Positions 5,867 to 44,026 are shown, counted from the first letter of the stretch. The stretch: 64,000 nucleotides of DNA from a virus (IMGVR_UViG_3300044644_001556), one strand, 5' to 3'. Made by a program: numbers and translations. The notes: generated by a model not told the origin, from the letters alone.

Positions 5867-5897
5867 AAATAGTGGTTTTAATAACCACTATTTTTTT
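5867..5897 (+). terminator. intrinsic terminator
   Basis: AAATAGTGGTT/AACCACTATTT stem followed by T-tract. Confidence 0.6.
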
Positions 5898-5919
5898 AGC
5901 TAATACTTACGGATATAAT

Positions 5920-7014
5920 ATGAAATTTTTAAAAGATTTTAACAAAACAGTTAGTAAAATGGGTGAAGGTGTAAATACGGATACTTCACCTCCGGATTGG
6001 TGGTTCGGCTCTGGTAACTATGTTTTAAATAAAATTATCGCCGGTAATTTCGATCGATGTATAGGTCAGGGTAGAGTTACAGGATTAGCTGGACCATCAG
6101 GTGCAGGTAAAAGCTTTTTATTAGCTAATATCATTAAACAAGCTCAAAAAGAAGGTGCTTATATTCTTTTACTTGATAGTGAAGGGGCATTCGATGATGA
6201 TTGGGCAACTGCTATTGGCATCGATGTAACTAGTGAAAATTATAACTGTATTCAGGTTTGTACTATTCCTCAAGTAGTTAAAATTGTTAGTTCATTTACT
6301 AAAGGGTATCGAGAAGATTATCCAGATGGTAAAGGCCCGAAAGTTTTAATAGCAGTTGATAGTTGCGATATGTTAATGACTGACAGCGAATCGGAAAAAT
6401 ACGATAAAGGTAATCCGAATGCAGATCAAGGTCAACATCCAAAGCAAATCAAACAGATGTTAAAAACTTTCGTAAATGATATTAAATCATTATATGTTAG
6501 TATGATCGTTACGAAACAAGTTTATCCAGCTAATCATGATCAGTTATTAAAAGGCGAAGGTGCTTGGGTGGTTAATGATGCAATTCGATATTCATTATCA
6601 CAAATCATGTTAATTACTAAATTAAAATTGAAAAGTGATTCTGGTATTACCGGTATTAGAATGAAGGTTGAAGGTTTTAAAACTAGATTTGCTAAACCAT
6701 TTCAGCAAGTAACGATTGAAGTTCCGTATGATACTGGCATGAATCCATATAGTGGTTTATTGGATGTAGCTGTTAATATGGGAATTGTTACTAAAAGAGG
6801 TGCTTGGAATTATATCGAAGGAACTGATATTAGTTGGTCTGGTGAAAAAAATACAACAGAAGCACATTACTCTAAAATTTTAGAGCTAGCTGCAACCAAG
6901 GATGTTTTTTTACAAGTAGATGAAGAGGATGATGTTTCAGCAGCCGCATCTAGACAAAAAAAACTAATGGAAAAGCATGCACCAAAAGATGATGAAAGTG
7001 TAGATGTAGATTAA
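5920..7014 (+). CDS. uvsX: RecA-family recombinase UvsX
   Basis: GPSGAGKS Walker A, LDSE, KTRFAKPF; ATG 5920 preferred because GTG 5872 lies inside a terminator hairpin. Confidence 0.9.
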   Translation: MKFLKDFNKTVSKMGEGVNTDTSPPDWWFGSGNYVLNKIIAGNFDRCIGQGRVTGLAGPSGAGKSFLLANIIKQAQKEGAYILLLDSEGAFDDDWATAIGIDVTSENYNCIQVCTIPQVVKIVSSFTKGYREDYPDGKGPKVLIAVDSCDMLMTDSESEKYDKGNPNADQGQHPKQIKQMLKTFVNDIKSLYVSMIVTKQVYPANHDQLLKGEGAWVVNDAIRYSLSQIMLITKLKLKSDSGITGIRMKVEGFKTRFAKPFQQVTIEVPYDTGMNPYSGLLDVAVNMGIVTKRGAWNYIEGTDISWSGEKNTTEAHYSKILELAATKDVFLQVDEEDDVSAAASRQKKLMEKHAPKDDESVDVD

Positions 7015-7030
7015 ATTCTTTACTATTCGG

Positions 7031-7066
7031 GGTTAGTTAAATATAATATTTAACTAACCTTTTTTT
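7031..7066 (+). terminator. terminator hairpin containing a TAAATA late-promoter-like motif
   Basis: GGTTAGTTAAATA/TATTTAACTAACC stem plus T-tract. Confidence 0.55.
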
Positions 7067-7072
7067 ACTATT

Positions 7073-7675
7073 ATGAAATTACAAGAACTTATTTTAGAAT
7101 CGCCCGTTTTAACCGATAAAATATCTAACTATTTAGATAACCCGGTTAAAAATCAAAGTCAGTTAGAAAAATTTTCGACGATGCATAAACAGCATTTATT
7201 TGACTTGGGAAAATATACACACGTATTTAAAATTTATAATAATAATGATGAATATTATATAGCTATAGATAGTCATGATATGAAAATCGTTTATTATATG
7301 TCATATAATTTTACTAGCGTTCCTATATTGGGCATGGCAGTAAACCAATCATTTGTTTGGTTAGATAAAGATTACCCACACACTAAAGGATTACCGAAAA
7401 AAATGTTCTTTGATTATTTGTTAAAAGAACATAATATAGTCATTACTGATTCAATTCAAACTTGGGATGGTCGTGATTTTTGGTTAAGACGATTATTAGA
7501 AGCGTTTCAAAAACATTTACATGTTTATTATATTGATTTATCGAAAAATCATATAGAACCAGTTATGCGATATATGGATGTTTATAAATTAGATAAGAAA
7601 TATCAAATATGGGCTCCATTAGATTTAAATGCATACGATAGACGGTTAATTATTTCCACTACTGAATTATTATAA
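7073..7675 (+). CDS. hypothetical protein, possibly GNAT-like
   Basis: 200 aa; ITDSIQTWDGRDFW motif; N-terminus MKLQELILES. Confidence 0.5.
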   Translation: MKLQELILESPVLTDKISNYLDNPVKNQSQLEKFSTMHKQHLFDLGKYTHVFKIYNNNDEYYIAIDSHDMKIVYYMSYNFTSVPILGMAVNQSFVWLDKDYPHTKGLPKKMFFDYLLKEHNIVITDSIQTWDGRDFWLRRLLEAFQKHLHVYYIDLSKNHIEPVMRYMDVYKLDKKYQIWAPLDLNAYDRRLIISTTELL

Positions 7676-8139
7676 TGACTACTAGCTTAGATTTAATAAA
7701 AAAAGACTTAAAACATTTAGATAAAATTATAGAAATATACACTGAAGATTTAAACGAAGCCGATATTTTATTAAAATTAACTAATAAAAAAATCGATATG
7801 GCTAATGCCGAGCATTCGGGTTGGAAAAATTATTATCATGCAAAAGAAGTAGAAGTCAAATATTTAAAAGAATACGTTCGATCCAAATTAGATGAAGTCC
7901 ATGGTGAATTATGGGTAAAATATACTGAAAAGATGGATCGAGTATTAACTCAAAAAGATAAAGAACAATATATTAGAAGAGAACCAATTTATTTAAACAT
8001 ATTATCAGAATTTTTAAAAATACAAGAATTACATGAGCAATTTGTTAGATTAAATGAAAGTTTTACTACCAGAGGCTATGTATTAAATAATTTAACTAGA
8101 TTAATTACATCAGATACTAATGATTGGATCATACCGTGA
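7675..8139 (+). CDS. uvsY: recombination mediator UvsY-like protein
   Basis: Helical 154-aa protein ending RGYVLNNLTRL, positioned between uvsX and uvsW. Confidence 0.7.
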   Translation: MTTSLDLIKKDLKHLDKIIEIYTEDLNEADILLKLTNKKIDMANAEHSGWKNYYHAKEVEVKYLKEYVRSKLDEVHGELWVKYTEKMDRVLTQKDKEQYIRREPIYLNILSEFLKIQELHEQFVRLNESFTTRGYVLNNLTRLITSDTNDWIIP

Positions 8140-10148
8140 GTGATAAACCTACTATTAACGTAACTATACATGACGAAGTAAAATGCCAATTTATCGGTAT
8201 TGATAAAACCACAATTGATTACTTATATAATAAATTTAGCTTATTTGTAGAAAATTATAAATTTAACCCTAGATTTCAATTAGGTGTTTGGGATGGTAAA
8301 AAGCAATTTTTTACTAAACAAGGACAAACCTTTGTTTACCTTATGCCTGAAATTATTTCAATTTTAAAATCTAGAAATTATAATATTGAAATAATTGATA
8401 ATAGAAGTCTACCTTTTTACGACGTCAGTGATCCGATAGAAAAAGATTACTTTAGTCATATCATCAATAAAAAAACAAAAAAACCTTACATGTTAACGGA
8501 TCACCAGCATGAAGCTATTAATAAGATGTTACCGATTGGTAGCGGTATAGCTTTAGCTGGAACCGGCTTCGGTAAAGCACAACCTCTATATTGTAAAATA
8601 TTAACGCCTACTGGTTGGACTACTATGGGTGATATCAAATCAGGAGATTTGGTATTTACGCCTAAAAATACGGTTGCTAGGGTGGTTAATACGTACGATC
8701 AAGGTATTACTGACGTTTATAAAATTAATTTAGATGATGGTGGTGTAACTTACTCGCATATAGATCATTTATGGAAAATTTATAATCAAAGATGGTTATA
8801 TAGTGGAGAAGAACCTTTTAGTGTAATTTCTACTAACGAGATTATGGATATATTGAATAATACATCAAAAGATGTTTATTTGCCGGTTATTCCAATACCA
8901 ATTAATTTTAAAAAATATGATTATCATATCGATCCGTATATCACCGGTTGTATATTACCGTTCGTTGAAATCGAAAATGATCAATTAATCATTAAAGAGC
9001 GCAAAGCTAGTACCCATACCCACAGCGAAATAAAAATATCTAATCTTATAGATACATTTAAACAATACGGAATTATTATCAAATATTATGATAAAATCGG
9101 TAGATTAGAAGCGGAAAATAATTCCGGTCAGTTTATTATTGAGGCTGCTAAATCTACCATTATAAATCAAATGGAAATACCGACCACTTACGTATTTTGT
9201 GATAGTAATGATAGATTGCGTTTTTTGCAAGGTGCTTGTGATGTAGGCGGAACATTATCGAAAAATGGACAAATAAGTTTATCAATCCCAAATACTAGAA
9301 TTAAAAATCAAATTAGAGAAATGATTTTACTTCAAGGTGGGTGCCTTGATCCGTTAAATAATAGATCTAGTTACAACAAACGATTAAACTCGACAATTTA
9401 TTTTACTCATCATTATCCAGATGCGTTTTTTACTGAGTTAAGTAAGAAAAAACATTATATTTTACATAAAACGGATAATAGATCGAAATTATCTAAGAAT
9501 AGAAAAATTGTTAGTATTGAACATATCGGACAGGAACCGACTAGATGCATATACATAGATGACGCAGATCATCTATATATTACGGATGATTGTATTATTA
9601 CACACAATACCATTTTAAATGCTACTATGTGTGATGTTTATGCAAAGAAAGGATGCAAAACTTTAACTATAGTACCGGCTACAACATTAATTAATCAAAC
9701 TATTGCTCAATTTAAAGATTTAGGATTATCTGTTGGTCATTATAATTCCGAAAATCAAGATTTAGAACCAGATCATATAATTATGACATGGCAAACATTA
9801 AAGAATTATCCGCATTTGATCAAATTATTTCAGATGGTGGTAGTTGATGAATGTATTGCTGGATCTTCTAGTATTTTATTGGCTAATGGTTATACTAAAT
9901 TAATTCAAGATATTGCAGTTAATGACATTATTATGTCATTTGACGAGGAAGCCGGATATTTCGTAAGTGATCGAGTTAGTAAAGTACATAAAAATTTATT
10001 AAAATCATCTGATGAATTGATGTACGAATTGGAATTCGATAATGGGAACATTTTACAAGTAACTGGAAATCATTTAATTTTAACAGAAGGGGGTTATAAA
10101 CGAGCAGATCAATTAACGGAGGAAGATGAAATAATTAACAGTGGGTGA
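8136..10148 (+). CDS. uvsW: UvsW-like SF2 helicase, N-terminal precursor (cis-intein plus N-half of a split intein)
   Basis: F.P.F..G.WDGK N-domain, AGTGFGK, IVP, TWQ, VVVDE; GTG start overlaps uvsY stop (GTGA). Confidence 0.9.
   Translation: MSDKPTINVTIHDEVKCQFIGIDKTTIDYLYNKFSLFVENYKFNPRFQLGVWDGKKQFFTKQGQTFVYLMPEIISILKSRNYNIEIIDNRSLPFYDVSDPIEKDYFSHIINKKTKKPYMLTDHQHEAINKMLPIGSGIALAGTGFGKAQPLYCKILTPTGWTTMGDIKSGDLVFTPKNTVARVVNTYDQGITDVYKINLDDGGVTYSHIDHLWKIYNQRWLYSGEEPFSVISTNEIMDILNNTSKDVYLPVIPIPINFKKYDYHIDPYITGCILPFVEIENDQLIIKERKASTHTHSEIKISNLIDTFKQYGIIIKYYDKIGRLEAENNSGQFIIEAAKSTIINQMEIPTTYVFCDSNDRLRFLQGACDVGGTLSKNGQISLSIPNTRIKNQIREMILLQGGCLDPLNNRSSYNKRLNSTIYFTHHYPDAFFTELSKKKHYILHKTDNRSKLSKNRKIVSIEHIGQEPTRCIYIDDADHLYITDDCIITHNTILNATMCDVYAKKGCKTLTIVPATTLINQTIAQFKDLGLSVGHYNSENQDLEPDHIIMTWQTLKNYPHLIKLFQMVVVDECIAGSSSILLANGYTKLIQDIAVNDIIMSFDEEAGYFVSDRVSKVHKNLLKSSDELMYELEFDNGNILQVTGNHLILTEGGYKRADQLTEEDEIINSG
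8577..9608 (+). mobile_element. cis-splicing intein, 344 aa, class 3 signature, degenerate LAGLIDADG-like domain
   Basis: GK|AQPLYCKILTPTGW start; block B HLW; block F TRCI; end ITHN|T; FLQGACDVGG. Confidence 0.85.
9852..10145 (+). mobile_element. split intein N-fragment (IntN, 98 aa)
   Basis: DE|CIAGSSSILLANG block A; VTGNH block B; GYKRADQLTEEDEI then tandem TGA TAG stops. Confidence 0.9.
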
Positions 10149-10188
10149 TAGAACCGCATTTATTTACAAATTTTTTTAGGTCATAGAT

Positions 10189-10428
10189 ATGCAACATCAT
10201 TTTAGTATTGAAAAGTATTACAAAGGATTAGAAGACGGATACGTAGAAAAGTCAAAAATATCACAGCGAGTAAATTCGCCCCGATGTTGCGATCCATTAT
10301 TAATTCCGTTTATCTATAATGACCGAGGAGAAAAACAGTTTATAAGTGACGGTGATAGAATTGCAATAATAGATGGAGTTAAGATAATTAAATCTAGTAT
10401 TGTCAGGAAATTTAAAAAATACATATAG
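10189..10428 (+). CDS. hypothetical protein between the split-intein halves
   Basis: 79-aa ORF; no recognised motif. Confidence 0.55.
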   Translation: MQHHFSIEKYYKGLEDGYVEKSKISQRVNSPRCCDPLLIPFIYNDRGEKQFISDGDRIAIIDGVKIIKSSIVRKFKKYI

Positions 10429-10438
10429 AGGCACTAAA

Positions 10439-11014
10439 ATGAGTAACGAAAATGAAGTAACCATTAATAATGGAAATAATGGTAACAATAACGGAAATAA
10501 TGGGAATTCTAATAACGGAAATAATGGGAATTCTAATAATGGAAATAACGGAAATTCTAACAATAACGGTAATCACGATAATGGCCATTCTGGCAATAAC
10601 GACAATTCCGGGAATGGCGACAATTCGCATGATAACAATAACAACGATAATTATATTAATCCTGATGTTGATAGCGATATCCATGAGTTAGATGATATTG
10701 GTGATTCGGATAATATCGACGTAGAAGATCACGACGGTGATAATCCAATCAAACGAATATCATTATATGATTACGATGAAGTTTATTATTCGTTTGATTT
10801 ATCTAGAATAAGTTCTATAGTTATCCACAATAGCAAAACATTTGCTCAAACTGTTAGCTTAAGATTAGAGATAGATAGTACTAAAATTTATAAATTTTAT
10901 ACTAATCATAGAAATACAAAAAATGTTAAAATCGAAAGTTCATTTATTGAACAAGATACTTTTAGACAATTAGTTATAGACTTAGGTTTATACGATTATA
11001 GATTTCCATTTTAA
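10439..11014 (+). CDS. hypothetical protein with Asn/Gly/Asp low-complexity N-terminus
   Basis: ATG 10439 preceded by AGAGG; NNGNNGNS repeats, acidic tract, then a globular-looking C-terminus. Confidence 0.65.
   Translation: MSNENEVTINNGNNGNNNGNNGNSNNGNNGNSNNGNNGNSNNNGNHDNGHSGNNDNSGNGDNSHDNNNNDNYINPDVDSDIHELDDIGDSDNIDVEDHDGDNPIKRISLYDYDEVYYSFDLSRISSIVIHNSKTFAQTVSLRLEIDSTKIYKFYTNHRNTKNVKIESSFIEQDTFRQLVIDLGLYDYRFPF
10487..10558 (+). repeat. three tandem 24-nt units encoding NNGNNGNS
   Basis: AATAACGGAAATAATGGGAATTCT twice exactly, third copy degenerate. Confidence 0.85.
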
Positions 11015-11030
11015 ATGATGAGGAGATGAT

Positions 11031-11363
11031 ATGGAAAATAACGATTTTATTAACGTAGAGCTTTTTATACGTGGTCCGGATTTCCATATCATCGAACCTA
11101 TAGCCGATAAGTGGGCTGATGAGTTTGATTGCTATAGCATTATTAACTGCGGTTATCATTCGGCTTATATTTTTGAGGATTTTAATGTAATATATAAACT
11201 GAAACATTATAAAAATACTTATCTGCCAATATTAGCTGAAAATTTACCAGAAAATGCTTACGTTTTAAATATAACGGATTGGAATGGTAATATTATATAT
11301 ACCGCCGGCAAATATAATATAGATAGAGATAATTCAAAAATAGTCCATCATAGATATAATTAA
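11031..11363 (+). CDS. hypothetical protein between the split-intein halves
   Basis: 110 aa; GAGGAG RBS; stop 1 nt before the IntC gene. Confidence 0.65.
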   Translation: MENNDFINVELFIRGPDFHIIEPIADKWADEFDCYSIINCGYHSAYIFEDFNVIYKLKHYKNTYLPILAENLPENAYVLNITDWNGNIIYTAGKYNIDRDNSKIVHHRYN

Positions 11364-11364
11364 A

Positions 11365-11469
11365 ATGAAATTAATTAAAAGAACATTAATAGAAAAACCA
11401 GAATATGTTTATAATTTAGAAGTAGAAAAAAATCATAATTACGTCGCAAATGGCGTTGTAGTTTCAAAT
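11365..11469 (+). mobile_element. split intein C-fragment (IntC, 35 aa)
   Basis: MKLIKR...VYNLEVEKNHNYVANGVVVSN|C blocks F and G. Confidence 0.9.
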
Positions 11470-12279
11470 TGTCACGGATCAAAAGCAAAAACACTATATG
11501 AATTATTAACGGATTATGGTCAACATATAGTCCATAGATATGGATTAACCGGGACGTTACCGAAAGATCCAGTTAATAAATTACAAGTTCATATTGCGTT
11601 AGGTCATGTAAATTGTTCGTATTCAGCAAAAGATTTAATTGAATCTGGTTGGCTAGCTCAGCCTAATATTACCGTCGTTCAATTAGATGATATTCAATGC
11701 CTTCGAGATGGGGGCGTTAAAAAACCGCACGATTTAATGTACGAAGAAGAAGAACATTTTATCAAATCAAATACTCAACGATTACAATGGTTAGCTGATC
11801 GTATAGTAGCCGATTCTAAAAAATCAAAAGTAGGTAATACTTTAGTTTTAATCAATAATATTAAATTCGGTAAAGAATTGGGTGCATTGATTCCAAATTC
11901 ACATGTTTTAAATGGTTCGAATAAAGATTCAGCTAGAAAAGCAGTTTATGATTTATTCGAAACTAATGATGATGTTATTGCGATCTGTACTAAAGGTATA
12001 GCCGGCGTTGGATTGAGCGTCGATCGTATTTTTAATTTGGTGTTTATTGATGCTGGCAAATCATTTATAGCGACTATTCAGCAAATAGGTAGGGGTCTAC
12101 GAAAAGGTAGAGATAAAGATTCGGTTAATATTTCCGATATCTGTAGTAATATGACGTCAGCTGATGCCCGAATGAAAAAACGAATTGCTTATTATAAAGA
12201 AGCCGGGTATCCATTTAAATTAACTCAAGCGCAATATCATAAAAATACTGAAGTTGACGATATCTTCAATATTGATTGA
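11365..12279 (+). CDS. uvsW: UvsW-like helicase, C-terminal precursor (IntC plus helicase motifs III-VI)
   Basis: After the intein: CH, GLTGT (motif III), GVGLSV (motif V), QQIGRGLRK (motif VI). Confidence 0.9.
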   Translation: MKLIKRTLIEKPEYVYNLEVEKNHNYVANGVVVSNCHGSKAKTLYELLTDYGQHIVHRYGLTGTLPKDPVNKLQVHIALGHVNCSYSAKDLIESGWLAQPNITVVQLDDIQCLRDGGVKKPHDLMYEEEEHFIKSNTQRLQWLADRIVADSKKSKVGNTLVLINNIKFGKELGALIPNSHVLNGSNKDSARKAVYDLFETNDDVIAICTKGIAGVGLSVDRIFNLVFIDAGKSFIATIQQIGRGLRKGRDKDSVNISDICSNMTSADARMKKRIAYYKEAGYPFKLTQAQYHKNTEVDDIFNID

Positions 12280-12323
12280 TTTTTTCATACTATTATACTA
12301 TAATTTAACTTTACATTTAATGA

Positions 12324-13697
12324 ATGGGATCTTTTTATATGTCTATATATAATATTTTGCAAGAATTATCGGAAACTACAAAATCAACAATTAAAATTAA
12401 TATTTTAAAAGAACATATCGATAATGAATTATTAAAACGAGTATTCGTAGCTGCATTATCACCGATCAATATTTATTATATTAAAAAAATTCCAGACTAT
12501 ACTCCATCAGAAAATCCAACATTAACTTTAGATGATGCTTTAAGTAAATTAGTCGATTTTTCATCAAGAAAATATACCGGTAATGCAGCTATTCAACATT
12601 TAACTAATATCTTAAATGCATTATCCGAATCTGATGCTGATATTATTTCAAGAATTATTCAAGGTAATTTAAAATGTGGGGTTAATGAAAGCACCATTAA
12701 TAAAGTATTTAAAGATTTAATTCCAGAATATCCGTATCAGCGATGCTCTCAACTCAAATCAGCTAAAGCCGCAAAATACCCTTGGGATAAAGGAGTTTAC
12801 TCTCAATTAAAAGCTGATGGATTATATGCTAATTTAAATTATTCAAATGTGGGTGAAATTCGTATTTTAACTCGTGCCGGGCGCGAATTTGAATCTCATG
12901 ATCAATTTGCTAATATTATTGATTACGTAAAAAATAATTTTTATAAAAATACTCAAACGCACGGTGAGTTTTTAGTCGAAAAAGATGGTAAAATTTTACC
13001 TAGAGAAATTGGTAATGGTATATTAAATAAAGTTTCTAAAGGTGGAAAATTTGAAGAAAATGAAAAACCAATTTATATGGTTTGGGATCAGATTCCATTA
13101 GATAATGCAGTACCGAAAGGTCGTTATGAAAAAACCTATGATTTTCGGTATAGTGAATTAATTTCTCAAATTAAAACGAGTAAAGCAGATATTCAATTAA
13201 TTAAATCTAAATTAGTTTATAGTCTAGAAGAAGCATTAGCTGATTTTCAATATTGGTTATCTTTAGGTTACGAAGGTAGTGTTATTAAAAATCCGGATGG
13301 TTTTTGGCGCGATGGTACTAGTACCGATCAAATTAAATTAAAATTAATTGTTGAAGTTGATTTAGAAATTGTTGGTTATACTACTGGTACTGGTAAAAAT
13401 AAAGAAATGTTTGGTTCTATTATGACTAAAACGTCGGATGATTTATTAGAAGTAAATATTCCCGGTATTAAAGATGCTATGCGTAAATATATTCATGAAC
13501 ATGCCGATGAATTAATTGGGACTATCGTAGTCGTTAAATTTAATAATATCTTACCACCCACCGATAATAATACTAAATACTCATTATTCCTACCTCGATT
13601 CGTCGAGTTAAGATCCGATAAATTAATTGCCGATTCATTAGAACAAGTTATCGATCAATATGATAGTGCTATTAATAGTATGAAATATTTAGATTGA
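12324..13697 (+). CDS. lig: ATP-dependent DNA ligase, T4 gp30-like
   Basis: QLKADG (KxDG), EGSVIK, KLK, LFLPRFVELRSDK; start may be ATG 12339. Confidence 0.92.
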   Translation: MGSFYMSIYNILQELSETTKSTIKINILKEHIDNELLKRVFVAALSPINIYYIKKIPDYTPSENPTLTLDDALSKLVDFSSRKYTGNAAIQHLTNILNALSESDADIISRIIQGNLKCGVNESTINKVFKDLIPEYPYQRCSQLKSAKAAKYPWDKGVYSQLKADGLYANLNYSNVGEIRILTRAGREFESHDQFANIIDYVKNNFYKNTQTHGEFLVEKDGKILPREIGNGILNKVSKGGKFEENEKPIYMVWDQIPLDNAVPKGRYEKTYDFRYSELISQIKTSKADIQLIKSKLVYSLEEALADFQYWLSLGYEGSVIKNPDGFWRDGTSTDQIKLKLIVEVDLEIVGYTTGTGKNKEMFGSIMTKTSDDLLEVNIPGIKDAMRKYIHEHADELIGTIVVVKFNNILPPTDNNTKYSLFLPRFVELRSDKLIADSLEQVIDQYDSAINSMKYLD

Positions 13698-14322: not shown

Positions 14323-14667
14323 ATGGCAGTTAAAAAGAAAAAAACTAATGAAATTAGTGTAAGTGAATTTAAATCTTGGATTTCTGGTATTGAAGATATG
14401 CAAGAAGATGGTTGGGTTCCGAATAAAGTTCAATGGGATAAAATTAAATCTAAAATTAATCTATTATCCGAATCAGTCGATGCAGAGCCGTCAGAAATTA
14501 ACGAACCTCAAAAATATTATCAGCCTGCACCTCAAATGCCATGGCCCCAACCGCCACAATTTCAGCAACAGCCTTGGTTACCTCAAGCTCCTGGCAGTTA
14601 CGGTAATCCACCCAGTTTGGATGACGATATAACATATTCTGATGGTTCAAAACCTGCATTTTTATGA
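14323..14667 (+). CDS. hypothetical protein
   Basis: EFKSWISGIEDMQ..W.P...QW..I domain with Pro/Gln tail. Confidence 0.65.
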   Translation: MAVKKKKTNEISVSEFKSWISGIEDMQEDGWVPNKVQWDKIKSKINLLSESVDAEPSEINEPQKYYQPAPQMPWPQPPQFQQQPWLPQAPGSYGNPPSLDDDITYSDGSKPAFL

Positions 14668-15191
14668 TCGAATTAAAAGATCGAATTTTATGGTATGATG
14701 GTTCTATTAGTATAGATCCGAAAGATATACAGAAATATATTCGAGTAAAAAATTTATTTGTTACTCAATTAACAGACGATATTAAACAATATAATAAAAA
14801 TGTGGTTGATTCCGATCGTATAGTTATTAAGCAAGGGTTAAATGATTTCGATACGAAATGGAATATTCCTGATTTATATTTTAATATTGATGTTTTTGAT
14901 TATATTACGAATAAATTTTTAATGATTTGTGATGATGAGCGATATTCAGATAGTGAAGTGATTTTTAGATTTAAACGAATTAAAACTGAATATTCAATCT
15001 TTAATAAATTAGGATTAAATGATTTACTGCGGACATTGATTTATATTATTGATAAATTTAAACAAAATAATATAGTTTGGGGTGTCGGTAGAGGCAGTAG
15101 CGTAAGTAGTTATATTTTATATCTAATGGAAGTTCATGATATAGATAGTATAACTTACGATTTAGATTTTTCAGAATTTTTAGGGGGTTAA
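14664..15191 (+). CDS. stand-alone fragment of DNA polymerase III alpha (DnaE-like)
   Basis: WGVGRGSSVSSYILYL..VHDID...YDLDF.EFL matches the DnaE GxGRGS...FERFL region. Confidence 0.8.
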   Translation: MIELKDRILWYDGSISIDPKDIQKYIRVKNLFVTQLTDDIKQYNKNVVDSDRIVIKQGLNDFDTKWNIPDLYFNIDVFDYITNKFLMICDDERYSDSEVIFRFKRIKTEYSIFNKLGLNDLLRTLIYIIDKFKQNNIVWGVGRGSSVSSYILYLMEVHDIDSITYDLDFSEFLGG

Positions 15192-34697: not shown

Positions 34698-37289
34698 ATG
34701 ACTACAAATATTGCAATTAGTAATTGCGCAGTGGATGCAACCACAGCACCCCCAGGTAAAACGGATGTATTGCCAAATACTTCGATTATCCGTGCGGGTG
34801 TAACTACAAATTCACCAACACTAACCCAAAATATTGATAATTTTGGTGATGCAACTACTGTTGTACCAACTGGTTCATTCTGTACTGTAAATGAATTAAT
34901 TTGGGCGGTTCGTATGGCGGTTGAAGGTCGGGCGTACGGTACTCCGCCGGTAGATGCGGGCGGTAAAGTAACCTTAGCAAATGGTGGATCTAGAGGTGAT
35001 TTTACTCACAGCTATAAACCAGCTAATGGCGGTGCGTTAGTTGACGTCGATTCGGATTCATTTGGTCCATTTAAAGCAGATATAACCAATCCAGCGGGCG
35101 GCCCAATCGCCGGTTATGTTGGTTGGACAGGTTGGACTTTATATGATACTTTTCCGTTAACTGGAGATAATGATCCAAGTGGTATCGTTACTCAAGTTTA
35201 TCGTGCATTAAATAAAGACGGTGTTTCATACAAATATTCAATTTTCCGTTGGAATTTATTATTGAGTGAAATCAATATTACTTCTTGTGAAGCTTGGGAT
35301 AAAGTTACTAGAACGTCGACTAACGAAACTCATACATTCTTTGATTCATCACCGATTCCTTATAAATTAAACGAAACAAAATTAGTATTGATGATTAACC
35401 CGCGTTGGTTAGTTTTACAATCAATTATCTATGATGAACCATCTGTTTGGGCGGGCGTATTTGAAACTGCACGCGAAGATATTACTGACGTTGCAACTTC
35501 AACAAACCCAGGTTTGCCTTGCTGGGGTTGGATTTCATCTACTTTATGGTCGTTAGGTGCTAAATCATATTTAGAAAAACCGATGGGTGGTGGTGCTGGT
35601 GCTACCGGTACAGCAACCGCAAGTGATTATACATTATTAAGTATGCCTCGTACTAAATCTGGTGCGACTGGATTTGGTGCAGCTAAAGGTTGGGGTGCGG
35701 ATTACGGGGTAGCTCAATATCCAAACTGGTTGACTAGTACAACTCCTGCATTCGTTACTTATTTAAGTAATGATAATGTTGGTAATAAATTCCAAGCGAA
35801 CTCATGGGATACAACCAAACGTTTAGTATTACCGATTAAACCAATTCATGATTATGCAGCTAACTTCGTCGCTAACTATGGTACAATCTTTGGTTTAAAA
35901 GTATTGGCTCCAATTGGACCGATGATGACTAAAATTAAAGTTAATACCGATGCGGATGGTAACTATACACCGGTAGTAACTTCAACTTCAACTAAAATTC
36001 ATTGGTTATTAAATACTCACCATAAAGCGTCTGGTGGCGCCGTTGCATCAGGTAGTGATTCTAATTCATGGTTCCAAAATACACAATTAGGTATTACTAA
36101 TATTAATACTAGCCCAAATAAACCATTTGCTTTAGTTAATGTTGGTTCTATTTGTTATGCTATTGCGGTTGCGGGCGGTCAGTTAAATAAATTCTTAAAA
36201 ATCAATTTGGTAACTCAGCAAGTTGATGTAATATTTGATTTATTAACTTCTAGTGCTAGTAAAATAACGATTCCTACATTATCACCGGCCGATATCACTG
36301 ATCTAGGTTTAGCGACTGGTAACGAAACTGCAGTTCCGACTTTATTTTTTGATATTAAATATGATGGCGATCAATACATTTATTTAACAACAGACGTTGG
36401 TCTTATTCGTTATAGAATTACTGATGGTAAATGGGTTAATAGAAATAAAGTAGGTCCTGGCTGTCAAGCTATTTCATTAACAGCATCTAAAATTTACGTA
36501 GCGCCAAAAACCGCAAGCCCAGCACCAAAAATTTATTCATTAAATAGAGCTGATTTTTCGTGGCAACCACAATCAACTGATATCTTATTAACTGATTTTA
36601 CTGATGATGTTATTATGACTGATGCATGTACTGGTACTGACGGTAGTGTTTATTTTACGCCTGTTATACCTGCGACTAGTAATGGTTATTCAACAAGATA
36701 TCGCTTAATTAAAATTGATCCGGCGGGTGTAGTATCGTATCATCCGTTTACTGTCGGGACTGGTAATTTAGCGACGCGTCAAGCAGCACTTCAAGTATTA
36801 GATAGCAATAACTTATTATTATGGCAGGCGACTGGTGATGGTGGGGCATGTACATTATATGCAGTTCGTATTAATACCACTAAAATGACGATGATGAAAT
36901 CAATTGATACTATTCAATCAACTGGTATTGCATTGGCTGGGGCTGGTATTATTAGTAGCAAACGCATACAACATGCTAAAATCCAAGGTGTTATTATTGC
37001 CGCACCATATTACGTAACAACTATCGGTTCATATGCGACATTACAATTGTGTTCACAATCAACCTCTAATACATTAGGTGTATTATCTGCGGTTGCTGGA
37101 TTAAACGGCGTAGTTAATATTACGGATACTATCTCCCCGGCCGGCAATAACTTATTCGTTTGGGATGGCGTTCGTTTCTACGGTAATACCGATAGTAGTT
37201 TACATATCTTTAGTAAATTAAATAATGAATCATGTTTCTCTGATGGTTCAAAAAATATTTTATTAGGTCAAGTTACTTTACCGGCTTAA
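34698..37289 (+). CDS. probable virion structural protein with beta-propeller-like C-terminal half
   Basis: 863 aa, Thr/Gly/Ala-rich; GGAG RBS; upstream ATAAATA. Confidence 0.55.
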   Translation: MTTNIAISNCAVDATTAPPGKTDVLPNTSIIRAGVTTNSPTLTQNIDNFGDATTVVPTGSFCTVNELIWAVRMAVEGRAYGTPPVDAGGKVTLANGGSRGDFTHSYKPANGGALVDVDSDSFGPFKADITNPAGGPIAGYVGWTGWTLYDTFPLTGDNDPSGIVTQVYRALNKDGVSYKYSIFRWNLLLSEINITSCEAWDKVTRTSTNETHTFFDSSPIPYKLNETKLVLMINPRWLVLQSIIYDEPSVWAGVFETAREDITDVATSTNPGLPCWGWISSTLWSLGAKSYLEKPMGGGAGATGTATASDYTLLSMPRTKSGATGFGAAKGWGADYGVAQYPNWLTSTTPAFVTYLSNDNVGNKFQANSWDTTKRLVLPIKPIHDYAANFVANYGTIFGLKVLAPIGPMMTKIKVNTDADGNYTPVVTSTSTKIHWLLNTHHKASGGAVASGSDSNSWFQNTQLGITNINTSPNKPFALVNVGSICYAIAVAGGQLNKFLKINLVTQQVDVIFDLLTSSASKITIPTLSPADITDLGLATGNETAVPTLFFDIKYDGDQYIYLTTDVGLIRYRITDGKWVNRNKVGPGCQAISLTASKIYVAPKTASPAPKIYSLNRADFSWQPQSTDILLTDFTDDVIMTDACTGTDGSVYFTPVIPATSNGYSTRYRLIKIDPAGVVSYHPFTVGTGNLATRQAALQVLDSNNLLLWQATGDGGACTLYAVRINTTKMTMMKSIDTIQSTGIALAGAGIISSKRIQHAKIQGVIIAAPYYVTTIGSYATLQLCSQSTSNTLGVLSAVAGLNGVVNITDTISPAGNNLFVWDGVRFYGNTDSSLHIFSKLNNESCFSDGSKNILLGQVTLPA

Positions 37290-37293
37290 TATT

Positions 37294-40200
37294 ATGATAA
37301 CTGGTAATGTTACATTAAATATACAATTTGTTGGTGGGATCGCTGGTAAGGCGGGTAAATGCTCTACAATTACCGAAACCCCACCGACTGTAGTTAGTAC
37401 TAGTAATGCTAGCATTACCACGACGTCAAAAACTCAGCTAATTGGGGTTGGTATTAAACCAGCTCCAATAGCTCAATCAATTACTCCTATTGTGGGCCAG
37501 CCGTCAATGGTCCGTAATATTTACTTACTTAGCTATCTCGGTTTAATTACTCCAGTAAAAACAACTGGAGTAAAATTACCTAAAATTGGGGCTGTTGGTC
37601 CTGGTTTATTAATCATTAATAATGGTATAGTTAAAAAAGTTATTATTAAATGGGGTGGTATAGTTTCAGTTAAAGTCGGAAAAACTCGAGTTTTATTTGC
37701 GGCTGATTATTTAAATATTAATCCACCCGATATTAATCGCGTTTTTAAACCCGGAAAAGGTGTCGGTATACGTTTACCGAAAGTTGGCCGCGCTACGGGC
37801 GGTAATCAAGATTTAATTCAATATTCAAATACTTTTACATTTAGTAGTCCAAATCCAGTAACTAAAAAAGTAACTGGTTTAAAAAGTAGTAAAGTTGGTT
37901 TTGTTAAATATCCAGCTATTACTCAAAGTACATTAAGTTTTGCGTTCAATACAAAAGTACAAGCAAATACAACATTATACGCATATAACAAATATCAAAC
38001 CAAGGGTTCAAAACTAGTCCTGCATTCAGGTATTAGACCCACTAAAGTTGGTTCTGCGACATTTAAAATATCGGATTCTTTTGCGGGTTACATATCATCG
38101 TACCTACAATCAAATACCAATATTAATTTTATATCGAAATATCAAATAGATCGTTTATTTAAAACTAAAATAGTTTATACTGGGTCTAAACCAGCAAAAG
38201 TAGGTTCAGCTACTTTTAATATAGGTGATTCATTTGCTGGGTATATCTCGCAATATACTCAAACTAATACTAATATTAATTACATATCGAAATATCAAAT
38301 AGATCGATTATTTAAAACTAAAATAGTTTTTGCTGGGACTATAAATCCTAGTATCGGTAGTGCTGAATTTAGAGTATCAGATACGTATACTGGATATATT
38401 TCTCGATATACCCAAACTAATACTAATATTAATTATGTATCTACTTATCAATTAAATAATTTATATCAAAATACTGTTTATAATGGTTGCACTCAGGCAT
38501 TAGTCGGTAGTGCTGAATTTAGAGTATCGGATACGTATACTGGATATATTTCTCGATATACCCAAACTAATACTAATATTAATTTCGTATCTGCATATCA
38601 ATTAAATAATTTATATCAATCTGTAGTTTATAACAGTTGTACGCTGCCATTAGTTGGTGGGGCCGAATTTAGAGTCGCTAATTCATTTGCTGGGTATCAA
38701 TCACAATACTCACAAATTAATACGAATATTAATTACGTATCTGGATATCAACTTTCTAATTTATATTTAAGTTCTACTTATAATATTTGCAATACTGCAT
38801 TAATTGGAACATTAACATATCCAATAACAAAAACAAAAAATACAATTAATGTTTATAATGCAGTCAATAATATTAGTTATATCCAAACTAATGTTCCGAT
38901 TATTAAAAATTATGTCGGTATTCCTGCACAAATAGTCGGTACCTTAATATATCCGGTAGCGAAAACAAAAACAGTCAAATATGTTTATAGTAATGATACA
39001 TTAACCTATATTCAATCTAATGCTCCAGTTATTAAAGATTATGTGGGGGTTTTAGATCAGACAGTCGGTACTTTAATATATCCGGTAATTAAAACCGCGA
39101 ATACGATTAACGTTTATAGTCAAGGATTCTCTAGATATACTCAAAATAATACACAATTAATTAAAGAGTATGTCGGAATTAATATACCTAAAGTAGGCGT
39201 TACTAAACGTTTAATCATTGGTTATGAATTATATATTTCTACAGCTATAGTTAATCAGCCGGGTGGCGGTTTTTCTTCTAGATATGCGGGGCCGTATAAA
39301 AAATCAATTGGTATAACTACGGATTCATTTACAGTTTCCAATCAAGTACCGCCACAAATACAAGCGGCTATTGCTAATATTACTAGTGTATTCCGCGGCG
39401 TTACTAAAAAAGCACCTCCGTTTAAATGTAATTATCCGCCGTCGTTATTATACACTCGACCATACAACGACCCCACACTTGCGCTTCGGCCGGGGCATTA
39501 TGCCGGTAAATTAGTCGCAAAATATGGCTCGTACGTAATATATGATCATATTTTATTACCACCATTAGCCAGCGAATTAGTTGTACAGAAACGTTCTGGT
39601 GCTGCTGATAAAGCTGGATTTGTCGGTTGCTTCGTACCTAGATTGGGTACTACCGCATTATACGATAGAATACCGCAGGTATTCGCAGATTACCTACCAA
39701 TTGTTGATCTTAAACAATTAGAAAAAGCTGGACGTATTAAAATCGTCGGTATAGTTAAAAAGGGAATCGGATCTACTACTAATGCATACGTATTAAATAG
39801 TGACGGAATTGCGTCATCTATTGCGAATATACAAGCAAGAGTTGCCGGCAAATCCGGGTTCTATAGTTCGTTAGTTGCAGCGCCTGGTCGCATGGAATCA
39901 TGTGAAATTATCCCAGGATTATTTAGATTTGATTATAGCTATACTCCAACTCATACGCCGACAAAATCATACGTCTATACGTTCGGTGGTTTTAATAAAA
40001 CGCAAGTTGGTTATTTACCGAAATTAATGTATTTGGGGTCACCCCAACAAGATTATTCATATTCGCCACCGAATAACCCGATTCTTAATCAGGCAGCTAT
40101 TGGTTTTGATGGTTTATTACCTAGTTTATTACCGGGGGCGGTAGCTACAGCGTATATTAGTAAACAACAAGATTCGACGACTAACAAATATACTTATACT

Positions 40201-43200
40201 CCACCACCACTTCAGCTTAACGAAGCCGGAATCCAAGGCTTCGCTGGGTGTATTTTACCACCAATTGGCTTAGGCGTTCCTAGTATTATTACTGATTTAT
40301 CAGTAATTTATAAAAATACTGGATTCTTCGATCAGACGACAAAAGCATCAGCTTGGTCGTATTGTGGATATAATTTTGTACCAGTTGGTACGGCATTAGA
40401 TAAGATAGTTGATTATTATTTCGACGATACGGCATTTTCGTATCGCCCGTCATTTATTAATGATGTTTCGGTATTTTATAATGCATGGGTTGGGACGATA
40501 TCTCCAGCCGTTGGGACTGGTTATTCGATAGATTATATACCATCATCTGATGGTAAATTATATTATGATTATGCAAATGATTACCTTAATGCTAAAGGTA
40601 TTGATTTACATGGTTATACCGGCTGTAAAATAAGCCCTATCGCTACAGTTTTCGTATCGGATATTATTATTCCGGAGGGTAAACACGAATATTATTATTA
40701 CCTACGTAATTTATTAGATAGTAATATTCGCGATAATATCCAACGAAATCAAGTTTATGAAACTGCTACTATTTCTATTGGTGGAATTCCGAGTCAATTT
40801 ATTGGTTCTATATTAGATGCATATCCAGTTGATAGTTCATTTATTAGTAATATTGGTCGTAATATCCAGCGAACGATATTACTCGATAATTTAATATGTT
40901 CTGGCGTTACGTCGACTATTAATAATATAGTCGGTAATACAATAAACCCATTTAAATTAAATAATGCAATCGATACTACATTGCGATACCAATCAAATAT
41001 CATCGCTGATATTTCTGCAGTATTTAATGTAATTAAAACGGTATTAGTCGGTAAATCAGTAAACGCAATTAAATTAAATAACTTAGCGTCAACTGAGTTT
41101 AGATATCAAGAAAATATAATCCCGGCATTTACTGGCGAATATAAAGGTATTATTAGTACTACTAATATAGTATGTTCAGCTATCGGTACTAAAAATTACA
41201 TATCTTATAATGATACTACTTTAGTTCAAACTAATATTATCACTACAGTATCAAATGGTATTGGTTTATCTAATTTTTATGTTGGTGGTGCTCCAGTAAA
41301 ATTATCATTAATTACTGGATTAACTACTAATGCGACTCAGACGAATATTTTACCGTTTGCTGTATCTACTGGTATTGGTTGCGTTAATGTTTATGTCGGT
41401 GGTACTCCGGTAAAATCATCGTTAATTGCGGGATTAACTACTGATGCGACTCAGACTAATATTTTACCGTTTGCCGTATCTACCGGTATCGGTTGCGTCA
41501 ATGTTTATGTTGGTGGTACTCCGGTAACCTCAGATCTAATTACTGGATTAATAACTAATACTTTACAAGATAATATAGTTCCAGATGCCGTATCTACTGG
41601 TATTGGTTGTGTCAATGTTTATGTTGGTGGTACTCCGGTAACCTCAGATCTAATTACCGGATTAATATCTAATACTTTACAAGATAATATAGTTCCGGCA
41701 GTTATATCTACTGGTATTGGTTGTGTTAATGTTTATGTCGGTAATACTCCGGTAACTTCAGATCTAATTACCGGATTAATAACTAATACTTTACAAGATA
41801 ATATAGTTCCGGATGCCGTATCTACTGGTATTGGTTGTGTCAATGTTTATGTTGGCGGCACTCCGGTAACCTCAGATCTAATTACCGGATTAATATCTAA
41901 TACTTTACAAGATAATATAGTTCCCGATGCGGTATCTACCGGTATCGGTTGTGTTAATGTCTATATAGGTAATACATTAGATAGTGTCAATGGTGTTGTT
42001 GGTACTATCAATACTGATAATATCCAAAATAATACAATACCTTCAGTTATTCGTGTTTATTCTGGGTTTATTAATATACCGATTGGCTTTACTGAATCTG
42101 ATTTAATTGCAGTAACTGGTGAATTAGATACTACCATAGTTCAGGATAATATAATACCAGATATTATAACTACAGGTATCGGATTAACTCAGTCATATAT
42201 TGGTTCTGCTAGTACGCCAGCTGAGTCGGTCGGGGAATTAACTAATAATATACAAGATAATATAGTACCTGCGGATATATCCGTCGGTATTGGTATTGTT
42301 AATGTTTATATCGGGGCGACATTAACTGCAGTCAAATCAGTCGGCGAATTAACTAATACTTTACAAGATAATATAATACCAGAAATTATTACTGTTGGTA
42401 TTAGCGTCGATAAAATCTTCGTCGGTAATGCATTCGTCGAAAGATTAGTTATTGAAGGTGAATTATCTAATACATTACAGGATAGTGTATTACCTAGTTC
42501 GATAACCGCCGGTATTGGTTTAATTAATACTTATGTCGGTAATGCATTAGCCGAACATTTAATAATAATTGGCGAGATAACCAATACATTACAAGATAAT
42601 ATAATACCTAGCATTATAAGTGACGGTGTTGGTTTTGTTACCTGTAATATTGGTTGGACTGAACATATATTAGTTGAAAATATTGGTGATTTGGGTGATA
42701 TCAATAATCACTATATTCAAACTAACGATAGATTAAAACCAATAAGTGATGGTGTTGGTTTTGTTACTAGCAATATTGGTTGGACCGAGCATATATTAGT
42801 TAAAAATATCGGCGAATTAGGCGATATCAATAATGTATACGTTCAAACTAATGATAGATTAAAACCGATAAGTGATGGTGTTGGTTTTGTTACTAGCAAT
42901 ATTGGTTGGACTGAGCATATATTAGTTGAAAATATTGGTGATTTGGGTGATATCAATAATCGCTATATTCAAACTAACGATAAATTAAAACCGATAAGTG
43001 ATGGTGTTGGTTTTGTTACTAGTAGTAATATTGGTCATACTATCGGTAATGCAATATCGTTAAATTTTGATGATATTATCATAACGAATTATAATAATCA
43101 AGATAATATTGTTCCAGAGTTAATATCTATCGGCGTTGGTTTAATATCTAATATAATTGGTAGTGCATTATATGAACATATAGAATCAATAGATATTGAT

Positions 43201-43662: not shown

Positions 43663-43663
43663 T

Positions 43664-43858
43664 ATGTATAAAGTACTTAAAGAATTATTACCAAATTCAG
43701 ATCATCTTTATTATGAAGTTACTGATGAAGAATTAAGTTTAATTGAAGTTCATAAGTTCGTAACTGAATATCAAGGCTCGCGCGTTGTTGGTACTGATGT
43801 TCCAGTTCCTGCGATCGCCGGTAAAGAAGTTCGCGAACAAAATTTTTCATTCTTATAA
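43664..43858 (+). CDS. hypothetical protein
   Basis: 64 aa; GGAG RBS; last gene before a terminator. Confidence 0.65.
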   Translation: MYKVLKELLPNSDHLYYEVTDEELSLIEVHKFVTEYQGSRVVGTDVPVPAIAGKEVREQNFSFL

Positions 43859-43868
43859 AATTTTGTTT

Positions 43869-43899
43869 AATATGGGGCTCTTTGAGCCCCATATTTTTT
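43869..43899 (+). terminator. intrinsic terminator
   Basis: AATATGGGGCTC/GAGCCCCATATT plus T-tract. Confidence 0.85.
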
Positions 43900-44026
43900 G
43901 GTTGTAATATTTTTATATTTAAAAACTAAATATAATCATATAGTTATATTTCTCGGTGGTAAACATAGTATATGATAAATATACTTTATTATGTATTTTA
44001 TTATGTTTATTCGGAGTTAAATTACT

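Follow-up and report, generated by a model that had tools for sequence, protein, structure and literature searches.

We describe here a uvsW-type superfamily 2 (SF2) helicase gene in which both ATPase motifs are interrupted by inteins. The gene lies in a 64,000-nucleotide stretch of viral DNA (IMGVR_UViG_3300044644_001556), the whole of which we call the window, and is broken into two halves. The first half encodes a precursor with a whole intein in the Walker A motif (intein 1), a putative class 3 intein, followed by the N-terminal part of a putative class 1 split intein in motif II; the second half encodes the C-terminal part of the split intein together with the remainder of the helicase. 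We consider it likely that two unrelated selfish splicing elements became trapped in the two ATPase motifs, the double requirement for splicing being a by-product of double parasitism with no regulatory design behind it. The gene itself is best explained as a uvsW-type SF2 helicase gene from an uncultured large phage.

The helicase gene is made up of the following parts. Residues are numbered from the in-frame TTG at 8124, numbers counted from the GTG at 8136 being lower by 4, and a slash marks a splice junction.

8136..10148, + strand: uvsW N-half precursor gene, 670 amino acids (aa) from GTG 8136 or 674 aa from TTG 8124, seen in the list of open reading frames (ORFs) and by Pfam (UvsW_N, Hint, Intein_splicing, ResIII)
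8136..8576, + strand: N-extein 1, the UvsW N-terminal domain and the start of the RecA-like lobe, up to the Walker A end ...LAGTGFGK (K151, 8574-8576)
8577..9608, + strand: intein 1, A152-N495, 344 aa, with T496 as +1 residue
9609..9851, + strand: middle extein, T496-E576, exactly 81 aa, from the Thr of Walker A (GK/T) to the DE of motif II (...VVVDE)
9852..10145, + strand: split intein N-part, C577-G674, 98 aa, with Cys1 and block B TGNH, matched by Pfam Hint and Intein_splicing
11365-12279, + strand: C-half ORF from ATG 11365, with the C-part of the split intein and the C-extein
11365..11469, + strand: split intein C-part, 35 aa, ending in ...VVVSN, matched by Pfam Intein_splicing at positions 127-155 of 155
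11470..12279, + strand: C-extein, 269 aa to the stop, whose Cys+1 (11470-11472) is the C of DECH and is followed by HGS; helicase lobe 2, Helicase_C

The N-half precursor consists of the N-extein, the whole of intein 1, the 81-aa middle extein and the N-part of the split intein, and is closed by the stop codons TGA TAG at 10146-10151. Translation most likely begins at GTG 8136, which forms a GTGA overlap with the upstream gene's stop codon; gene callers choose the equivalent codon in the 97% identical homologue P0001.

To place the splice junctions, we aligned both halves with the intein-free helicases of phages XacN1, Xoo-sp13, RsoM2USA and fHe-Yen9-04, with the intein-bearing helicase of Escherichia coli phage ph0011 and with both halves from Salmonella phage S16. 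All four splice boundaries are unambiguous in this alignment. Removal of both inteins in silico yields a protein of 497-501 aa that aligns with the intein-free helicases without gaps at either junction (GTGFGK/T against GTGAGK/S, and VVVDE/CHGS against VIVDECHGV). The spliced product is colinear with the 513-aa XacN1 helicase, and GxGxGK-T and DE-CH are restored. An earlier note on this DNA had reported that both UvsW ATPase motifs are interrupted, 81 residues apart, and that the N-precursor carries one and a half inteins; the coordinates and the intein-free alignment agree on the former, and the ORF, Pfam and the alignment on the latter.

The helicase and intein identities are supported by several matches that lie well outside what chance would give. 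Pfam detects UvsW_N at 32.7 bits (cut-off 25.3), Hint at E 1.4e-7 and Intein_splicing at E 4e-5 and 9.5e-6, the Hint and Intein_splicing matches covering both ORFs. The T4 UvsW structures 1rif and 2oca match both halves, with 2oca reaching E 2.5e-12 for the C-half, aligned from DECH onward, and the 'DNA helicase' families phrog_16259 and phrog_9690, matched at E ~1e-44, are made up of such N-halves and C-halves. The gene combines an N-terminal domain, an SF2 core with motifs I and II, Helicase_C and a recA/uvsX-like neighbour, as expected of uvsW.

Intein 1 is inserted exactly between GK and T of Walker A. Class 3 inteins lack Cys, Ser or Thr at position 1 and carry a W-C-T triplet formed by Trp at position 12 of block B, Cys at position 4 of block F and Thr at position 5 of block G; their +1 residue is Ser or Thr, rarely Cys, and the Cys of block F must act as the first nucleophile (Tori et al. 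2010, PMC2807308). Intein 1 shows the same pattern, with Ala1, His215 and Trp217 in block B, Cys475 at position 4 of block F, Thr493-His-Asn495 and Thr+1. H215-L-W217, C475 and T493-H-N495 are invariant in 32 homologues, as is T496, the Walker A Thr. The splicing blocks match the Mycobacterium class 3 DnaB inteins 6rix, 6riy and 6bs8 at E 3e-8, with H-x-W, R-C and T-H-N coinciding (the PDB title of 6bs8 is 'The class 3 DnaB intein from Mycobacterium smegmatis'). These features point to a class 3 intein, with class 3 chemistry the predicted route of splicing.

An allele of intein 1 occupies the same GK/T site in E. coli phage ph0011. Most same-site homologues have Ala at position 1; P0021 and P0027 start with Asp, P0019 with Ser and P0028-P0030 with Cys. 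The W-C-T triplet is invariant across these changes from Ala to Ser, Asp or Cys, a natural series that spans the boundary between class 1 and class 3. Two cysteines near the splice junctions vary between the window's clade and the outgroups: C157 (intein position 6, 8592-8594) is found in the window's clade only and is Ser in outgroups, and C490 (intein position 339, five before the terminal Asn, 9591-9593) is found in most of the clade and in P0022 and P0023, with Tyr or Phe elsewhere in outgroups.

An AlphaFold model of intein 1 built from the 32 homologues is of high confidence (predicted local distance difference test (pLDDT) 88.9, predicted template modelling score (pTM) 0.90). A Foldseek search with this model returned PI-SceI as the best match (E 8e-13), together with TliVMA, PI-PfuI, class 3 mini-inteins including 6bs8, and I-DmoI; the middle 230 residues are therefore predicted to form a LAGLIDADG-fold domain nested in a HINT fold. 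Both catalytic Asp residues of this domain are gone in the window and in its whole clade, where remnants of the two motifs (8934-8975 and 9210-9251) read ...GCILPFVE... and ...GACDVGG... in the window against ...GDG... and ...D(T/S)DG... at the same site in outgroups. Pfam finds no LAGLIDADG match in the window's intein 1.

The second intein interrupts motif II at DE/CH, 81 residues beyond intein 1, and its two parts lie on separate polypeptides, with 1216 nt and three ORFs between them. The residues of a class 1 intein are all present, namely Cys1 (C577), TGNH, the terminal Asn and Cys+1 (...SN/C), and they are kept in every allele examined, both in the window's clade and in alleles of the S16, PM2, L021 and L023 type. 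The nearest solved relatives of the N-part are the Ssp DnaB mini-intein and NrdJ-1, and the C-part matches several inteins in the PDB, including Npu DnaE IntC. We read this element as an ordinary class 1 split intein that would splice in trans. The pairing of a cis class 3 with a trans class 1 intein, which the earlier note had put forward, thus agrees with the W-C-T signature of intein 1 and with Cys1, TGNH, Asn and Cys+1 of the split intein. The same layout, repeated in two independent public assemblies that are 95-99% identical over ~10 kb, is therefore no assembly artefact.

For intein 1, these residues suggest a scheme in which Cys475 of block F would attack the K151-A152 bond and the N-extein would move to Thr496; Asn495 would then cyclise, and an O-to-N shift would join GK to T. 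For the split intein, the 98-aa N-part of the first polypeptide would dock with the 35-aa C-part of the second, Cys577 would form a thioester, Cys+1 would accept the N-extein, and cyclisation of Asn35 would be followed by the joining of DE to CH. Splicing is most likely constitutive in both cases. The claim that both reactions depend on Cys nucleophiles holds in so far as each uses at least one catalytic Cys (C475; C577 and Cys+1), but the second nucleophile of intein 1 would be the hydroxyl of Thr+1.

The ATPase of SF2 helicases needs intact Walker A and DExH motifs. Since both motifs are physically interrupted, an intact ATPase core requires a cis-splice plus a trans-splice, and would be found only in the doubly spliced product of ~497 aa. 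The AND logic proposed for the helicase therefore stands, as judged from the broken Walker A and DExH box and from what is known of SF2 enzymes; this follows trivially from having two insertions, and cases of the kind are already known.

The earlier note had suggested comparing uvsW alleles from related phages, and intein-free, intein-1-only, split-only and double alleles were all found. In a search of 5.8 billion proteins, at least 27 metagenomic protein clusters (627-717 aa) cover 97-100% of the N-precursor at 27-97% identity and have the same one-and-a-half-intein build. Intein 1 alone is present in six full-length helicases (827-867 aa) from the same search, which also returned two 702-aa helicases with a shortened intein 1 and intein-free forms of ~500 aa. 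The split intein by itself is found in cultured T4-like phages, the S16 group and PM2. In P0042, the split intein is accompanied by a different, Cys1 intein located three residues earlier in the P-loop, and L013, another SF2 helicase, carries a contiguous intein at the same DE/CH position. A word-based search for shorter, split-only N-halves gave two matches; the one examined, P0070, is truncated by the end of its contig, and so is no gene in three pieces.

In a tree of the exteins, the four allele states are scattered, with at least 11 changes of state. Two supported pairs of sisters differ by intein 1 alone, ph0011/Yen9-04 (99/99) and P0024/P0035 (100/99), and P0021, which has intein 1, is nested among the four intein-free forms P0034, P0036, P0037 and P0039. 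The intein 1 alleles of ph0011, the P0024/P0035 pair and P0021 have intact GDG and DxDG motifs.

The two elements have travelled differently from the exteins that carry them. Split N-parts from S16 and PM2 (49%), the ph0011-like lineage and P0042 share 42-49% identity with that of the window. The figure for members of the window's own clade is 46-56%, leaving aside P0019, which is divergent (34%), and P0001, which is nearly identical (98%). Identity between exteins, by comparison, drops from 45-77% in the clade to 23-40% across distant lineages (23-28% for S16 and PM2). The branches between lineages are 0.1-0.2 substitutions per site for the split intein vs ~1-3 for the exteins, and within the window's clade the split intein evolves faster than the catalytic exteins. 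Since the split intein is more alike than the exteins across lineages, it has moved between very different uvsW genes. Transfer of both inteins as one block between distant lineages was examined and rejected, because the middle extein, at 30-40% identity, is no better preserved between lineages than the N-extein (26-32%), against 42-53% for the inteins.

Inside the window's clade both inteins are inherited vertically, with matching subclades in the intein and extein trees and dead LAGLIDADG motifs in all members. P0022 and P0023, which have intein 1 only and a degenerate endonuclease domain, fall inside the supported 24-row clade that holds the window, and because of this placement intein 1 appears to be the older of the two, with the split intein added later. 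In the history that we favour, intein 1, its endonuclease domain already dead, would have been present in the common ancestor of a clade in which some alleles are unsplit. The split intein, accompanied elsewhere by an endonuclease-like gene, would then have been acquired horizontally from a very different uvsW, after which both elements would have been inherited vertically. Both would be retained because only an exact deletion would restore the motifs, in line with the argument that a host gene is restored by precise deletion only (PMC2988022).

Ratios of nonsynonymous to synonymous substitution rates (dN/dS), computed among three close relatives, are 0.01-0.06 for the middle and C-exteins (0.05 for the C-extein), 0.08-0.16 for the N-extein, 0.02-0.21 for the splicing parts of intein 1, 0.07-0.12 for the dead endonuclease domain and 0.09-0.16 for the split N-part. 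These low values indicate that the gene is in use and that the inteins must keep folding, and they count against a decaying gene. They cannot separate a trapped parasite from a regulator, because a misfolding insert costs the phage its helicase either way.

A separate observation concerns L010 and L011, two IMG/VR relatives of the window that are almost identical to each other outside one block, with 9 mismatches in ~2 kb upstream of it and 13 in ~4 kb downstream. The block, L010:2150-6105, corresponds to window positions 7675-11469 and holds 597 mismatches. It takes in the gene at the uvsY position, the entire N-half including its two inteins, the ORFs between the halves and 36 nt at the start of the C-intein. 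The last mismatch lies 70 nt before the C-extein, so that the right edge of the block is inside the C-intein. Such a pattern marks a block of recombination, of the kind expected close to a hot spot of homing or recombination.

Several observations weigh against trapping as a full account of the locus. That the two splicing reactions occur, and that they are constitutive, is inferred from sequence comparison. In the window's clade the LAGLIDADG domain is dead and there is no recognisable endonuclease gene between the halves, so present-day selfish spread is not evident. Both elements persist in at least 20 protein clusters, down to ~45% extein identity, and the double-intein state occurs in at least three extein lineages kept apart by supported branches. 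Purifying selection acts even on the dead endonuclease domain, as domestication would also predict. The clade-specific C157 and C490 lie near both splice junctions of intein 1. Finally, position 4 of block F in the split intein (11404-11421; VYNLEV or VYNLHV) is Asn in place of the Asp that is usual, though not universal, in class 1 inteins; this holds for all alleles, including S16, PM2 and L021. Another solved intein matched by the C-part, with IYHIQVE at the aligned stretch, likewise lacks the Asp.

The earlier note had gone further, proposing that the two splicing reactions place recombination-dependent replication under conditional control, in part through the amounts of the two gene products, and had named the accumulation of parasites at conserved sites as the null explanation. 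Such a domesticated two-input switch, in which the class 3 step would sense redox state or metals through Cys475 and partner cysteines and the trans step would sense the concentration or timing of the halves, together licensing recombination-dependent replication, seems unlikely to us. It would explain why both elements are fixed and under purifying selection in a sizeable clade past homing, and it would give a role to the cysteines at intein 1 positions 6 and 339; moreover, splicing of the class 3 P-loop intein of M. smegmatis DnaB (DnaBi1) can be halted reversibly by oxidation, which acts through a disulfide within the molecule, and also by zinc (PMC6195587; PMC7360933). The regulatory extension would, however, be drawn by analogy with DnaBi1 alone. 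Any intein trapped in an essential motif would be equally retained and selected (PMC2988022), close outgroups cope with one intein or none, and no signal-sensing element was found in the sequence. The split intein arrived horizontally and is decoupled from the exteins, and other alleles have endonuclease-like genes or an intact LAGLIDADG domain, so we find no support for conditional control. Independent dosing is not suggested either, because the halves share one strand and are spaced 1.2 kb apart with no convincing terminator between them, and the ATG of the C-half starts one base after the stop of the preceding 110-aa ORF; the two halves appear to share a transcript and to be coupled in translation to the genes next to them. 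A promoter and terminator scan gave matches at chance level. A more specific proposal, that two immobilised inteins were co-opted as a two-input post-translational licence, combining a disulfide or metal trap (Cys475, C157, C490) with the timing of C-half translation together with the three small ORFs, strikes us as highly improbable; if it were true, helicase activity and recombination-dependent replication would switch on only at a defined stage or cellular state. The comparative data instead favour the accumulation of parasites at conserved sites.

Two further alternatives would leave the splicing scheme incomplete or redraw it. The halves might work without covalent joining, held together by the split intein as a clasp, or the split gene might be decaying and non-functional. 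T4 uvsW is dispensable for plaque formation, and the block F Asn in place of Asp also counts in favour; all the same we give this little credence, as no allele examined has lost any of the split intein's catalytic residues, Cys+1 doubles as the C of DECH, the exteins are under strong purifying selection (dN/dS 0.01-0.06) and the Asn variant is also present in the cultured phages S16 and PM2. It is also conceivable, at most barely, that intein 1 is a class 1 intein that begins at Cys157 and leaves AQPLY in the mature protein. Cys157 lies five residues past Ala152 and opens what looks like a typical block A (CKILTPTGW...), and some same-site alleles begin with Cys (P0028-30) or Ser (P0019). We tried this start and rejected it: intein-free homologues have S/T directly after GK and no AQPLY-like insert, the P0024/P0035 pair gives the same boundary as our alignment, and retention of AQPLY would wreck Walker A. 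In addition, outgroups have Ser at the Cys157 position, Q153 and P154 are invariant in the 32 homologues, residue 152, Ala in the majority of alleles, can also be Ser, Asp or Cys, and the W-C-T triplet does not vary. Trapping of two selfish elements remains our preferred reading of the locus.

The space between the two halves is occupied by three small conserved ORFs.

10189..10428, + strand: 79-aa ORF, present in every readable clade relative (L008-L012, L022, L026, L027)
10439..11014, + strand: 191-aa ORF, from ATG 10439 after GAGG (the mechanical ORF starts at TTG 10400), with homologues in L008-L011
11031..11363, + strand: 110-aa ORF, with a strong GAGGAG ribosome-binding site and homologues in L008-L011

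All three are under purifying selection, and none has a match to a Pfam or PHROG family. The 79-aa ORF is the sole ORF between the halves in L012 and L022, and L025 and the P0016 contig have a called ORF of similar size and place. A profile search of 1.84 billion representatives with the 79-aa ORF returned 14 proteins, 11 of them 68-95 aa long, which defines a family of 11-14 clusters. Its invariant motifs include G-x-E-D-G and D-G-D, dN/dS is 0.10-0.27, and an AlphaFold model (pLDDT 80) predicts a small beta-rich fold for which no PDB fold match was found. The 191-aa ORF has an Asn/Gly-rich N-part of tandem repeats (dN/dS 0.34-0.45) and a conserved C-terminal domain (0.06-0.22). Its repeat, at 10465-10560, is a 24-nt tandem repeat encoding Asn/Gly-rich heptads in ~4 copies (Tandem Repeats Finder (TRF) score 136), and differs by a 24-nt indel from that of the 95-99% identical contig L026.

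The content of this space varies between alleles as follows.

L021: nothing (63 bp)
L012, L022: one ORF, 75-83 aa
L025, P0016 contig: one called ORF, 83-93 aa, matched by size and place alone
Window, L010, L011: three ORFs
L008: four ORFs
S16, PM2, L023: an endonuclease-like ORF

The endonuclease-like ORFs of S16, PM2 and L023 are homologous and 291-307 aa long, the S16 and L023 copies being 36% identical (E 3e-34) and matching phrog_15427 'endonuclease' at E 9e-20 and 9e-26. The S16 copy additionally shows weak NUMOD3 and TnsA-like signals. In the P0020 contig, a lysozyme gene and two genes on the opposite strand come after the N-half, and a 299-aa opposite-strand gene lies ~1.8 kb away at the contig end; the C-half may have been displaced or inverted there.

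The helicase gene belongs to a row of recombination and replication genes on the + strand at 5872-13697, in the order RecA/UvsX-like gene, 200-aa ORF, 154-aa ORF at the uvsY position, uvsW-like helicase and ATP-dependent DNA ligase. The jumbo phage XacN1 has a matching order of RecA, ~200 aa, ~154 aa and helicase, and the order in E. coli phage ph0011 is similar, with the small gene annotated UvsY. A search of 50,697 phage records for relatives at the DNA level gave short patches at most, and an Rfam scan found no family match, such as to a group I intron. Downstream of the row, the match of a 175-aa ORF (14664-15191) is confined to a short stretch of the DNA polymerase III alpha NTPase domain; XacN1 (ORF245), L022 and L025 have the same small gene downstream of their helicases. 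Elsewhere in the window, the - strand at 51868-53190 carries a nicotinamide/nicotinate phosphoribosyltransferase gene (NAPRTase E 1.6e-47, NAMPT_N E 1.3e-20), an auxiliary gene of NAD salvage, and three very large ORFs (863, 2122 and 1492 aa) at 34698-48505 have no Pfam match at E 0.001.

Both elements of the locus add an allele to a class already known, and close precedents exist for their combination. The split dnaE gene of Trichodesmium erythraeum, reportedly described by Liu and Yang in 2003, is said to hold several inteins and to need both cis-splicing and trans-splicing for maturation; there, unlike here, the gene is that of a cyanobacterial chromosome, with its halves at separate loci. 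Closest in chemistry is M. smegmatis DnaB, in which the class 3 DnaBi1 sits right after the Walker A GK (GK/S) and a class 1 intein (DnaBi2) lies elsewhere in the ATPase domain, so that here, as there, both inteins must go and two chemistries are involved (Kelley et al. 2018, PMC6195587). Intein 1 matches DnaBi1-type structures by sequence and fold. The differences are that the host is an SF2 UvsW here and a superfamily 4 (SF4) DnaB there; that the second intein is split over two genes and sits in motif II, whereas DnaBi2 sits in the H4 motif; that intein 1 retains a dead LAGLIDADG domain, whereas DnaBi1 is a mini-intein; and that conditional splicing of DnaBi1 has been shown by experiment, whereas the present case is known from sequence alone.

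The broken gene also resembles the fractured genes (gp41-1, NrdJ-1, IMPDH-1, DnaE-1 and others), in which a phage gene for DNA metabolism is interrupted at a class 1 split intein with adjacent halves on one strand, as set out in the fractured-gene model; one of these loci, DnaE-1, even has a portion of a further intein in frame (Dassa et al. 2009, PMC2677866). The S16, PM2 and L023 alleles fit this layout, with an endonuclease-like gene between the halves. However, uvsW is not among the eight host enzymes of that study (PMC2677866), and the window has three small conserved ORFs between its halves instead of an endonuclease gene. The nearest relatives of the split intein in cultured phages are Salmonella phage S16 gp114/gp114.1/gp115 (NC_020416) and Proteus phage PM2 (NC_055727), which share the DE/CH site and the split-intein family but lack a Walker A intein and have a single 291-aa endonuclease-like ORF between the halves. 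Their GenBank records annotate the halves simply as two 'DNA helicase' genes, and our literature search turned up no mention of a UvsW split intein. Haloarchaeal MCM provides a parallel for the choice of sites, with two independent inteins in or next to Walker A (site a, P-loop) and Walker B (sites d/e), for which the authors invoke independent homing, co-homing being inefficient (PMC4760082; PMC10643990). In contrast to our case, both MCM inteins are contiguous and have active endonucleases, and the host is archaeal.

Taken by itself, the locus does not establish a new regulatory principle. For protein engineering, it offers a natural and presumably mutually orthogonal pair of inteins on one polypeptide, with 81 residues between them. 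One is a class 3 cis-intein whose junctions are GK/T; the other is a compact Cys1/Cys+1 split intein (98 + 35 aa) whose junctions are DE/CH and whose block F has an unusual Asn at position 4. More broadly, uvsW joins the phage replication and repair genes that are intein hot spots, and the alleles form a natural series of intein-free, P-loop-intein-only, split-only and double forms. This series shows parasites gathering at both ATPase motifs, followed by vertical carriage once spread has been lost, and gives intein biology a test bed for asking whether trapped inteins turn into regulators.

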